A stretch of DNA of 37,190 nt from a virus: positions 1 to 37,190 of the IMG/VR virus record IMGVR_UViG_3300031994_000263. One strand, 5' to 3'. This document shows positions 33,220-35,389 of this stretch, one piece after another. The position numbers were made by a program, and so were the translations under genes. Numbering within the stretch: the first letter of the stretch is position 1; each line of letters opens with the position of its first letter. The notes beneath the pieces were generated by a model. It searched no databases, was not told the origin of the DNA, and saw nothing but the letters and a program-made list of their open reading frames with translations.

Positions 33220-33621
33220 ATGAAAACTAAATAGAAAATTTAGAAAATTAATCAATAGCTTGAATAGTTTTCTTTAAAAGAATAGTATTATACTAAAAAA
33301 AAGCAATTACAAAAATTAAAAAAAGAAACTTCAAGATTTAAAATATCCGCCTCTAAATTTCTTATGGGTTTCTTATTTTTAAATTATACTACTCTTGAAT
33401 TTTTTACTGGTTATGTTACAGTAGAAAATATAAAATTAGCAAGAGAATTAATGATAGCCCCTGATTATTCTCCTTTAATAGCATTAATTAGTGCAGTAAT
33501 TGGAGAAGTGACTTGCTTTTTTATCTATTCAAGTAAGGCCGCAAAAGAAAACTGTAAAGGCGGCATAGTATATGAGCAAGCAATGGCTCAAATAAACAAT
33601 TATGAATAGCCAAATGGCTAA
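33220..33621 (+). CDS. Membrane protein at the head of the lysis cassette, a candidate holin or antiholin. It is 133 aa if it starts at ATG 33220, and the first 20 codons then hold five in-frame TAGs. The alternative start is ATG 33364, giving 85 aa. The hydrophobic segment is PLIALISAVIGEVTCFFIY.
   Basis: A strong RBS aggag lies 5 nt before ATG 33220. The alternative start 33364 lacks an RBS. The frame is open through TAG codons to TAA 33619-33621. Confidence 0.4.
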
Positions 33622-33633
33622 GAAAGGAAATAT

Positions 33634-33987
33634 ATGGAAAAAATTATTGAATATTGGCCATTAATACTTGTTACAATAGCAAGTATAACAGTTATTTCCT
33701 ATTTAATTTATACATTTATTAAATGGCCAACTCAAAAGCAAATTGAAAAAGTTAAAGAATGGTTATTATATGCCGTAACATAGGCCGAAAAAGAATTAGG
33801 CGGTGGCACTGGTCAAATCAAACTCCGCTATGTATATGATAAATTCTTAACTAAATTCCCTTATTTAACATCAGTTATTACTTTTGATTTATTTAGTAAA
33901 TTAGTCGATGAAGCGCTTGTTAAATTTAGAGATATATTAGAAAATAATAATAAAGTACAAAAATATATAAATAGCTCTAAGGAGTGA
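33634..33987 (+). CDS. LL-H-family-like holin of 117 aa. It has an N-terminal transmembrane helix and one TAG.
   Basis: The RBS aaggaaa is present. The TM segment is YWPLILVTIASITVISYLIYTFI, followed by EKELGGGTGQIKLRYVYDKF, which resembles Holin_LLH. The gene sits immediately 5' of the endolysin and ends at TGA 33985-33987. Confidence 0.5.
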
Positions 33988-33991
33988 TTAT

Positions 33992-35389
33992 ATGGCAAAA
34001 ATTAAGGGCATTGATTTATCCCAATGGCAAGGTGATATTGATTTTAAAAAGGTTGCCGCATCAGGTGTTAAATTTGCTATTCTCCGCGAAGGATATAGAA
34101 AAACAATTGATAAAAAATTTATTGAATATGCAAAAGGCTGCCAACAAAATGGTATAACAGTTATGATTTACCATTTTATTTATACAGACAATGCAACTAT
34201 TCAACAAAATGCTTGGTCTACATATATCAATTTAAAAAAAGCAAATTTAGATCCATCTAAAACTTGGATTGCATCAGATCTTGAATATGACACATGGGAT
34301 AAAAATGGTGAAAAATGTACAAAAGAAAAATGTACATTATACACTAAACAATATCTATAGGCATTAAAAAAATTTGGATGTAATAAATTATTTATTTATG
34401 CTAATAATGATTATTATAAAAATTATTATGACTGGTAGCAATTAAATAATTATCCAGTCTGGTTAGCAGATCTATCTAATACATTAAATGAAAATAATAT
34501 TCAATAGAAATATCCACATGCCATATTACATCAATATAGTTGGACTGGGCAAGTCCCCGGGATTAATGCAAATGTTGACATGGACTGGTTATATAATGCA
34601 GATATGCTAACAAAAGATAACATAACTTTTAAAAAATTAACAGCTACAAAAAAAGTAACCGCACAAGATGTTCTTAAAGTTATGTCAAGTTGGGTTGGCA
34701 TGTCAAGAGCCAATATGACGCATAAACCAATTATAGACACTTATAATAGCTATTCTCCAAAAGCAAGAAATTATACAGTCACATATCAAGATGAATATTG
34801 TGATACCACGATTTCTGCGGCTTTTATTAAACTTAATGCAGTTAACCTCATTGGTGGAACTGAATGCGGAGTAGAAAAACACGTTCAAATATTTAAAAAT
34901 TTTGGAATTTGGGAATAGAATGGAACAATAACTCCTCAACCAGGATATTTAATTGTATACAACTGGGATGATAATACACAACCAAATGATGGATATTCGG
35001 ATCATATTGGAATTGTAGAATCGGTTTCAAATAATAAAATTACAACAATTGAAGGTAATATGTCTGGCGGAATTGTTGGAAGACGCACTATCCCGATTGG
35101 TTGGGGATATATACGCGGCTATGCTAAACCTAAATATGCAGTTTCCACCTCTCAGCCAATAGTAACAAGTGAATTAGACTATGCTCAATCATATGACAAA
35201 AATTTAATTAGAACTTTTACTACAACAGCTACACTTAATATGCGGGCCGGGGCAGGAAAAGATAAAAAAGTTATTACTATAATACCAAACAATGCAACTG
35301 TTTCTTGTTATGGATACTATACTGATAATTGGTATTTTATTCAATATAAAGACTTTACTGGATTTTGTTCTAGCGCATATTTAAAGTAA
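33992..35389 (+). CDS. Modular endolysin of 465 aa: a GH25 muramidase domain, a CHAP peptidase domain and an SH3b cell-wall-binding domain. It has four in-frame TAGs (34358, 34436, 34505, 34916).
   Basis: The GH25 N-terminus GIDLSQWQGDIDFKKVAASGVKFAILREGY is present. CHAP Cys and His residues occur in YQDEYCDTTISAAF...GYSDHIGIVESV. The C-terminal SH3b-like segment is TLNMRAGAGKDKKVITIIPNNATVSCYGY...WYFIQY. Three ORF-track pieces in one frame are joined only by TAG. Two TAG positions align with Gln in the pneumococcal Cpl-1 lysozyme as recalled from memory. Confidence 0.75.

Follow-up and report, generated by a model that had tools for sequence, protein, structure and literature searches.

In-frame TAG codons in the lysis cassette of a probable large Bacillota phage and their alignment with glutamate

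The DNA analysed here is a 37,190-nt stretch from a virus (IMG/VR record IMGVR_UViG_3300031994_000263, positions 1-37,190, one strand; hereafter the window). The subject of this work is a putative lysis cassette within it, consisting of a gene for a small membrane protein (gene 1), a second small gene with holin-like features (gene 2) and an endolysin gene (gene 3). Gene 1 opens with a leader that is dense in in-frame TAG (amber) codons. The coordinates of the features are given in Table 1. An earlier annotation made by a model from the letters and their open reading frames (ORFs), here called the sequence-only reading, had described all three cassette genes as recoded, and this was borne out: the in-frame TAGs number six in gene 1, one in gene 2 and four in gene 3. 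The standard-code stops fall at codon 5 of gene 1, codon 50 of gene 2 and codon 123 of gene 3. The cassette is an amber island between TAG-free genes of nucleic-acid metabolism on the same strand.

Table 1. Features of the window that bear on the cassette and on the meaning of TAG (aa, amino acids; RBS, ribosome-binding site).
Feature	Coordinates	Strand	Description
RuvC-like resolvase	10885..11373	-	7 TAGs; key evidence on the meaning of TAG
Intrinsic terminator-like hairpin	33174..33209	+	13-bp stem (33174-33204) followed by a U-run; one base before the gene 1 RBS
Shine-Dalgarno AGGAG	33210..33214	+	5 nt before ATG 33220
Gene 1	33220..33621	+	133-aa membrane protein; 6 in-frame TAGs; uncharacterised phage family
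TAG-dense leader	33220..33345	+	Codons 1-42 of gene 1; inferred reading MKTKEKIEKINQELEEFSLKEEYYTKKKQLQKLKKETSRFKI
Sixth TAG of gene 1	33607..33609	+	Codon 130; standard-code end of the 81-aa ORF 33364-33609
Gene 2	33634..33987	+	117 aa; one N-terminal hydrophobic helix; Holin_LLH-like; TAG at 33781 (codon 50)
Gene 3, endolysin	33992..35389	+	465 aa; GH25 muramidase, CHAP and SH3_3; TAGs at 34358, 34436, 34505 and 34916
Strong intrinsic terminator	35397..35436	+	3' end of the cassette
Promoter TTGACA-17-TATACT	35448-35476	+	After the closing terminator; serves the TAG-free RNase H gene

The open frame of gene 1 has ATG 33220 as its first start codon and ends at TAA 33619-33621 when TAG is read through. 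The in-frame TAGs of the leader begin at 33232, 33241, 33256, 33265 and 33283 (codons 5, 8, 13, 16 and 22). The sequence-only reading had put five TAGs in the first 20 codons; their number was right and their placement was not, four lying in the first 20 codons and all five in the first 22. Its translation of the leader, MKTK*KI*KINQ*LE*FSLKE*YY, was exact. Homologues of gene 1 were drawn from the protein database and then read at the DNA level. Across 16 homologues the leader is conserved as protein, with in-frame indels, and frame 0 never contains TAA or TGA. When the leaders of 12 homologues were counted frame by frame, frame 0 held 40 TAGs and no TAA or TGA, whereas frames 1 and 2 held 2-10 TAA/TGA each and six TAGs in total. 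The start of the long form is preceded by GGAGG, GAAAGG or GAGG in homologues too. Four more distant homologues (L059, L083, L088 and L096) lack TAG throughout gene 1, gene 2 and the endolysin, and their gene 1 encodes a charged, Glu/Lys-rich N-terminal helix of the same length. As to the TAG density asked about in the sequence-only reading, the leaders of the homologues carry between zero and five TAGs.

The same reading had proposed translation from the RBS-backed ATG 33220 and had said that a start at ATG 33364, driven by an internal promoter near 33260-33294, would overturn it. The first proposal agrees with the AGGAG sequence, the first start codon of the frame and the conservation of the leader as protein. 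The alternative start fails: the methionine encoded by ATG 33364 (Met49) is Thr or Ile in L002, L004, L007 and L008, no Shine-Dalgarno sequence precedes it, and the promoter scan found nothing at 33260-33294, its sole hit in the leader being a 9/12 site at 33316-33344 that is no better than shuffled sequence. We therefore concluded that the TAG-rich leader is translated and that the long form from ATG 33220 is the gene. Gene 1 is impossible under the standard code and therefore depends on amber suppression.

Two side observations concern the leader. L001, a very close relative, shares the gene 1 core (residues 49-129) of the window without a difference and has CAA (Gln) at the window's TAG codon 5; both flanking codons differ too (window 33229-33234 vs L001:18-23), and the N-terminal tip varies between very close relatives. 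In the minimum-energy fold, the RBS/start region AGCUAUU (33211-33219) pairs with AAUAGCU near the third TAG (33253-33262), a predicted pairing that could sequester the RBS.

TAG is a sense codon in the late genes of the window, since the large late ORFs are open only when TAG is read through. With TAA and TGA as the only stops, ORFs of 2905, 1460, 641 and 601 codons contain 56, 29, 14 and 12 TAGs, respectively. Together with the lysis genes (6, 1 and 4 TAGs), these late and structural genes carry in-frame TAG, whereas no TAG occurs in the genes for RNA ligase, polynucleotide kinase, phosphoesterase, RNase H and GyrB; these early or replication-type genes are written in the standard code. Ribosome-binding sites are strong throughout. 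The best explanation of the window is that it is part of a large Bacillota phage (relatives of ~130 kb): its relatives in IMG/VR are contigs of 130-200 kb, and the hosts of the nearest phage relatives of its endolysin are Clostridia. Searches of GenBank phages with the cassette (blastn) and with gene 1 (tblastn) found no similar sequence, an IMG/VR scan with the first structural protein of the window returned no relatives, and exact matches to window proteins occurred only in contigs of at most 8.7 kb.

The two gene classes also differ in codon dialect beyond TAG itself. TAG-free genes favour CAG for Gln (24 CAG and 9 CAA in 27470-29941, 17 and 5 in 4700-5536, 10 and 4 in 30498-31745), and TAG-containing genes avoid it (CAG/CAA of 35/147 in 18019-26727 and 7/50 in 13553-17908). 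The set of recoded genes changes fast among close relatives: RNase H has no TAG in the window (35510-36022) and one to four TAGs, including one at the catalytic Glu, in relatives (L002:4726-5229, L003:7533-8051, L010:1542-1742 and L011:1812-2324).

The amino acid written as TAG was read from codon-level alignments. The RuvC-like resolvase was aligned with 63 homologues. Column 62 contained GAA 49 times, GAG seven times and TAG seven times, and column 141 contained 48 GAA, 9 GAG and 6 TAG, with no other codon in either column; three more TAG columns of this protein were mostly Glu. From an alignment by eye, we take column 62 to be the catalytic Glu of E. coli RuvC; a PDB search with the RuvC-like protein gave nothing useful. 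In L002, the RNase H gene has a TAG where solved RNase HI structures have the Glu of TTNNRMEL, and the RNase H genes of L003, L010 and L011 have TAG in the same motif; we take this Glu to be the catalytic E48. Columns of the gene 1 family gave the same picture at KAAK[E]NC (TAG 4, E 12), VY[E]QAM (TAG 4, E 10, D 2) and G[E]TIGF (TAG 4, E 11, Q 1), as did the two bracketed columns AA[E]K[E]FG of the gene 2 family (first, TAG 5, E 9; second, TAG 3, E 10, H 1).

Tallies over many proteins pointed the same way. In a Codetta-like tally of the window and 97 loci, limited to columns at least 80% conserved, TAG sites (n=140) fell on E at 0.53, Q at 0.14, D at 0.07 and K at 0.07; as controls, Gln codons fell on Q at 0.78 and Glu codons on E at 0.86. 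The clade-wide empirical likelihood favoured Glu over Gln by 68-143 nats. For the window by itself, with an enlarged locus set and columns at least 70% conserved, 30 TAG sites gave E 18, K 4, D 4 and Q 1, while Gln codons gave Q and Glu codons gave E. Four large relatives, tallied separately, gave E 14-16 vs Q 0-4 each. The alignment of TAG with Gln that marks genetic code 15 is therefore not what these phages display; Glu dominates. In the public protein database, Q is written at every TAG of these phages (P0001-P0012, P0013-P0132), and the same RuvC-like columns look E/Q-mixed there, an artefact that arises because the gene caller writes Q for TAG. This translation may also be the reason that only some RuvC-like homologues carry a Pfam RuvC match. 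Judged from these alignments, we concluded that TAG stands at glutamate positions, and not glutamine positions, across the phage group; the sequence-only reading had assigned no amino acid to TAG. TAG at Glu positions implies that the gene 1 leader most probably reads MKTKEKIEKINQELEEFSLKEEYY, a Lys/Glu-rich helix like that of the TAG-free homologues.

A candidate suppressor tRNA was found in relatives. ARAGORN, with introns allowed or at lower thresholds, detected no suppressor in 180 loci (2.7 Mb), and a guessed pattern, the CTC-to-CTA derivative of the phage's own tRNA-Glu, had no match in IMG/VR. A pattern scan of IMG/VR for tRNA(CUA) matched L193, part of the 130-kb record IMGVR_UViG_3300021431_000004, which also carries a GyrB 90% identical to that of the window and a RuvC-like homologue. 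The L193 tRNA(CUA) scores 64 bits against the Rfam tRNA model and lies inside a 12-tRNA array; homologous genes are present in four further IMG/VR contigs that come from related samples. Of the five contigs, three share the order tRNA-Glu(UUC), tRNA-Glu(CUC), tRNA(CUA), tRNA-Met, the first three genes lying at L180:1810-2163, L421:3170-3523 and L422:512-865, with tRNA-Gln(UUG) elsewhere in the arrays. The array of L193 also contains a full-length ROOL RNA (RF03087, 338 bits; L193:5607-6233).

The tRNA(CUA) occurs in two forms with nearly identical D and anticodon arms. In the form of L180, L421 and L422 the first pair is G1-C72, the variable loop is 4 nt long and the D-arm reads GTCAAGCGGTTTAAGAC; the form of L193 and L420 has C1-G72 instead, together with a variable loop of 5 nt and two mismatches in the D-arm. 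Among 120 sampled bacterial matches to GTCAAGCGGTTTAAGAC, 110 of 112 tRNAs were tRNA-Glu, almost all from Bacillota, and 25 of the 26 tRNA-Gln genes in the same bacterial loci lack this D-arm. With the anticodon arm removed, both forms scored highest against Bacillota tRNA-Glu and low against tRNA-Gln; the Bacillota reference set was recruited via the Glu D-arm motif, which makes this isotype comparison partly circular and supportive rather than proof. A tRNA-Gln-type suppressor would have U1-A72 and a Gln-type D-arm, and the genes found have G1-C72 or C1-G72 and a Glu-type D-arm. Many Bacillota have no glutaminyl-tRNA synthetase and use a non-discriminating glutamyl-tRNA synthetase (GluRS) that tolerates variation at anticodon position 36, and amidation by GatCAB depends on U1-A72; a tRNA(CUA) with a Glu body would therefore receive Glu and keep it. 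We infer that the suppressor is derived from or mimics Bacillota tRNA-Glu, that a non-discriminating host GluRS could charge it, and that GatCAB would not amidate it in the absence of U1-A72.

The gene 1 protein begins with a Lys/Glu-rich helix, continues with two hydrophobic helices and has a strongly conserved motif, KAAKENCKGGIVYEQAM, at its C-terminus. Its AlphaFold2 model has helices at 2-40, 44-77 and 84-127 (pLDDT 69). The family comprises at least 300 clusters at 50% identity. Single-protein and family-wide scans gave no match to Pfam or to a holin PHROG; distant members match phrog_17876 and phrog_37691, both of unknown function, and a fold search of the model against viral structures returned no significant match. 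Across loci, gene 1 adjoins endolysins of three different types. The gene had been called holin-like by the sequence-only reading: its small size, the two hydrophobic, putatively membrane-spanning helices seen in the sequence and the model, and its endolysin neighbour fit that description, and membership of a described holin family does not follow, none of those in Pfam, PHROG or the structure search matching it.

Gene 2 directly follows gene 1 in every locus with enough flank. It matches phrog_36029 (1e-40; unknown function) and phrog_6918, annotated 'holin' (1e-5); against Pfam Holin_LLH (PF09682) it reaches 14.6 bits, below the gathering threshold of 24.9, and is not assigned to that family. 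In most relatives genes 1 and 2 overlap by 14-20 nt (L003:6422-6438, L004:1473-1486, L008:843-859, L010:428-444, L011:1340-1356, L012:601-620 and L013:678-694); the window has a 12-nt gap instead. The overlaps suggest translational coupling, in which case the gene 1 ambers would gate gene 2 as well.

Gene 3 belongs to a recognised endolysin class, with Pfam matches to GH25 (1e-23), CHAP (1e-7) and SH3_3 (1e-8) at 84.6, 32.5 and 35.4 bits (cutoffs 27, 26 and 27, respectively). It matches the autolytic lysozyme 4krt in PDB (4e-16) across its TAG positions; these lie at variable positions, and no TAG residue was resolved by the PDB alignments. The endolysin slot itself varies, holding GH25-CHAP-SH3 in the window and glucosaminidase-like or other enzymes elsewhere. 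The endolysin lies upstream of gene 1 in L004 and is missing from the slot in several loci. The slot after gene 2 holds a TAG-free protein of 208-211 aa with no family match in L003:6795-7421, L010:804-1430 and L013:1051-1686, and is empty in L002, L011, L012 and L043, where the endolysin must therefore be encoded elsewhere.

The cassette lies between a terminator-like hairpin and a strong terminator. At its 5' side is the hairpin (33174-33204; fold z = -3.3) with its U-run. Of 14 homologous loci, 11 have such a structure in this place, built on at least six unrelated stem sequences; a stable hairpin, a U-run and the position upstream of gene 1 are all kept. Besides the window (33150-33219), it was seen in L002, L003, L007, L008, L011-L013, L043, L083 and L088, and a U-rich 'UUUUUAUAAU' motif directly adjoins the 5' arm of the hairpin in many of the loci. 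A consensus terminator scan missed it because the stem is AT-rich. The hairpin may act as a terminator, as a 5' stabiliser or as part of a late promoter. Unlike the other intergenic regions of the window, the space between the hairpin and the gene 1 RBS has no room for a sigma-70-type promoter. Near-identical TTGACA-17 nt-TATACT promoters follow terminators at 3715-3745, ~11400-11450 (minus strand) and 35448-35476; these three are probably the host-sigma-70-type promoters of the phage.

We consider it likely that TAG is read as Glu in the late genes, that the cassette is gated by the suppressor, and that gene 1 is thereby a steep, late switch. Early in infection, in a host using the standard code, a ribosome starting at ATG 33220 would halt after four codons. 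Five of the eight Glu positions in the predicted cytoplasmic N-terminal helix would be written as TAG. Transcripts presumably reach the cassette through terminator read-through, and early ones reading into it would yield no full lysis proteins, the ambers serving as a translational lock. As tRNA(CUA) with its tRNA-Glu-type body accumulates, TAG would be read as Glu and full proteins would be made. With six read-throughs, the yield of gene 1 would go roughly with per-codon suppression to the sixth power (giving 1.6% when suppression is 50% and 53% when it is 90%), that of gene 3 to about the fourth and that of gene 2 to about the first. Gene 1 would be the last and steepest to appear, and an early stop in it could lower genes 2 and 3 through lost coupling or polarity. 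We infer the timing effect, the lysis role of gene 1 and the coupling or polarity acting on genes 2 and 3.

Several observations weigh against this reading. The window contains no tRNA of any kind and no Rfam family, and the suppressor comes only from relatives. Nearest-isotype typing was ambiguous when the references were divergent phage tRNAs or when the entire tRNA body was compared, and gave a clear answer only once the anticodon arm was removed and Bacillota tRNAs served as reference; the amino-acid identity of a tRNA cannot be proved from its sequence. About 7-14% of TAG columns align with Gln, above the value for ordinary Glu codons, which leaves room for mixed or lineage-specific decoding of TAG. 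The lysis role of gene 1 is putative. On the side of timing, the enrichment of TAG over the whole of gene 1 is not significant (6/16, p = 0.17), genes 2 (1/10) and 3 (4/17) are at or below the late-gene average, and homologues with zero to two leader TAGs, as well as wholly TAG-free cassettes, exist. Conservation of TAGs may itself be neutral, because TAG cannot reach GAA in one step, the single-base routes towards it leading to TAA (a stop) or the rare GAG.

These density figures bear on the strongest rival, namely that TAG is merely one of the Glu codons of late genes and that the leader is a Glu-rich helix with no special role in timing. We give this by-product explanation a serious chance, somewhat short of even. 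Density was measured as TAG/(TAG + Glu codons), with the TAG-containing genes outside the cassette pooled as reference; there TAG makes up 24% of Glu codons, and 43-50% in three genes. When TAG was counted against CAA/CAG in the gene 1 family, its share was the same in the leader (40/78) and in the rest (25/46). These figures, like the whole-gene, homologue and gene 2 and 3 counts above, are what a common Glu codon would give. On the other side, the leader (42 codons) has a TAG share of 5/8 (nominal p = 0.02 vs 0.24, before any correction), and its five TAGs per 22 codons form the densest cluster of any real reading frame in the 37 kb, no other exceeding three. Within that 66-nt stretch each of the five TAG triplets falls in frame 0, and at least five in-frame TAGs arose in 10 of 200,000 composition-preserving shuffles of it; clusters of five TAGs exist at three other places in the window, in non-coding frames only. 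Every recoded member of the gene 1 family keeps at least one TAG in its first ~37 codons, and in two other phage clades Borges et al. (bioRxiv 10.1101/2021.08.26.457843) report a preference for recoding among lysis-associated membrane proteins. The cluster is genuine and has no equal among the real reading frames of the window, and it falls short of demonstrating selection for a clock over a Glu-rich helix. Of the "built-in translational lysis clock" put forward by the sequence-only reading, the need for suppression holds, while a purpose-built clock does not follow from a modestly enriched leader; the clock is plausible but unproven.

A second alternative keeps to code 15, with TAG read as Gln and the Glu alignments explained as GAG-to-TAG mutations tolerated as Glu-to-Gln changes. 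The published phage reassignments of TAG are indeed to Gln (crAss-like, Lak and phAss-1), Crisci et al., who met Glu at occasional TAG positions of Lak phages, nevertheless inferred Gln, and in the present alignments Gln does occur opposite TAG in part of the columns (Q 20 at RuvC-like position 127, for instance; ~10% overall). Yet this code would place Gln at catalytic or invariant Glu residues, at RuvC-like positions 62 and 141 and in the RNase H of four relatives; control Gln codons fall on Gln in 68-91% of cases, whereas TAG columns fall on Gln in 0-14% and on Glu in 52-60%; and neither the U1-A72 pair nor the GCC/GGC D-stem that Bacillota tRNA-Gln has is present in the suppressor. We regard it as improbable.

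Dual-start holins are an established principle (lambda S105/S107), and a third possibility is that gene 1 makes two isoforms, a short one from Met49 to the TAG at 33607 before suppression and a long one after it, forming a holin/antiholin-like pair. Both ORFs are present in the window, and in the window, L003-type and L009-type sequences Met49 lies exactly at the start of the first hydrophobic helix. However, the two conserved in-frame start codons of the lambda S type are not found, Met49 being unconserved and lacking an RBS, and reinitiation 130 nt past a stop is unlikely, so that we think this pair very improbable. Least credible of all is an untranslated leader, a 5' untranslated or regulatory stretch ahead of an 81-aa product made from an internal promoter: the standard-code ORF 33364-33609, the leader's TTGAAT (33260) and its hexamers resembling TATTAT/TATACT, and the many database representatives that are short and start near profile position 40-50 speak for it, but the start-site and promoter results, the amino-acid conservation with in-frame indels and no TAA/TGA, and the same helix in TAG-free homologues speak against it, and the short database forms are what a standard-code gene caller puts out after the last leader TAG.

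Other genes of the window may be mentioned here. Just upstream of the cassette, the TAG-free RNA ligase, polynucleotide kinase and phosphoesterase genes (30498-33151) look like an RNA, possibly tRNA, repair set. A TAG-free protein of 823 aa (27470-29941) has no PHROG match and is 38% identical to proteins of the 462-735 kb huge phages LR756500, LR756501 and LR756503. Between the TAG-free RNase H and GyrB genes lies a GIY-YIG nuclease gene (36022-36717) with three TAGs, homologues having Glu or Ala at one of them; Borges et al. (bioRxiv 10.1101/2021.08.26.457843) described a homing endonuclease recoded in a similar way.

Intrinsic termination directly ahead of lysis genes is known from lambda, where the terminator tR' precedes S-R-Rz and is read through with the Q antiterminator. 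The window resembles the lambda late operon in having an intrinsic terminator right before the lysis cassette with no promoter between; it differs in that no antiterminator was identified in the window and that the added lock is translational, through the ambers. Two-component holin cassettes are known from Bacillota phages, in PBSX (XhlA-XhlB-XlyA) and SPP1 (a holin pair). Like them, the window cassette has two small membrane-protein genes beside the endolysin, one with a charged or coiled N-terminal helix followed by membrane helices; in contrast, no sequence or fold relationship to them was detected, and gene 1 falls in an uncharacterised family related to phrog_17876.

The sequence-only reading had noted that stop-codon recoding of lysis genes was already proposed as a guard against premature lysis, and this proposal is in the literature (Borges et al., bioRxiv 10.1101/2021.08.26.457843). 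The window shares with the crAss-like (TAG) and Agate (TGA) phages of that study the setting of a low-GC phage in a standard-code host, early replication genes in the standard code with recoded structural and lysis genes, and a strongly recoded transmembrane protein in the cassette, for which a block of lysis until suppressor tRNA is present was proposed. It differs in that TAG stands at Glu and not Gln positions, that recoding is concentrated in the 22-codon N-terminal helix of the first gene, and that the cassette stands apart as an amber island, with TAG-free genes on either side and a conserved terminator ahead of it; preferential recoding of its lysis genes as a set is not apparent, genes 2 and 3 being below average. 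The cassette is the hypothesis of Borges et al. in a particularly concentrated form.

With the code 15 phages (Lak, crAss-like and phAss-1) the window clade shares amber as a sense codon in late genes and a tRNA(CUA) in a tRNA array. TAG in those phages aligns best with Gln and the suppressor is called Gln-type, whereas in the window clade TAG aligns with Glu, including at catalytic positions, and one suppressor form combines the D-arm of Bacillota tRNA-Glu with G1-C72 and a variable loop of 4 nt, its gene lying beside two tRNA-Glu genes. Al-Shayeb et al. left TAG unresolved. Within the searchable literature, whose coverage is incomplete, we found no phage code with TAG as Glu; reports assume or infer Gln. 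UAG, with UAA, encodes Glu in peritrich ciliates (NCBI table 30) and in Blastocrithidia (table 31). The reading of UAG as Glu is the same; those codes are eukaryotic, genome-wide and include UAA, while the phage uses TAG only, in a subset of genes, and its host presumably keeps TAG as a stop.

On balance, we lean towards a clade of large (~130 kb and above) gut or rumen Bacillota phages that has an unreported TAG = Glu code, with a Glu-type suppressor as third member of the tRNA-Glu set, and in which the N-terminal amber run makes lysis output steep against the suppressor level. If this is true, stop-codon recoding in phages is wider than Gln, Trp and Gly. All proteins of the clade in public databases would carry wrong residues, including Gln at catalytic Glu, which would degrade annotation, structure prediction and family models. 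There would also be a natural Glu-inserting tRNA(CUA) in Bacillota, of interest for genetic-code engineering, and it would pose a concrete question on the specificity of GluRS and GatCAB. The cassette is a compact test bed, with five ambers in 22 codons, TAG-free natural homologues and a terminator-only junction with the early genes, and the hypothesis that recoding prevents premature lysis is therefore directly testable on it.

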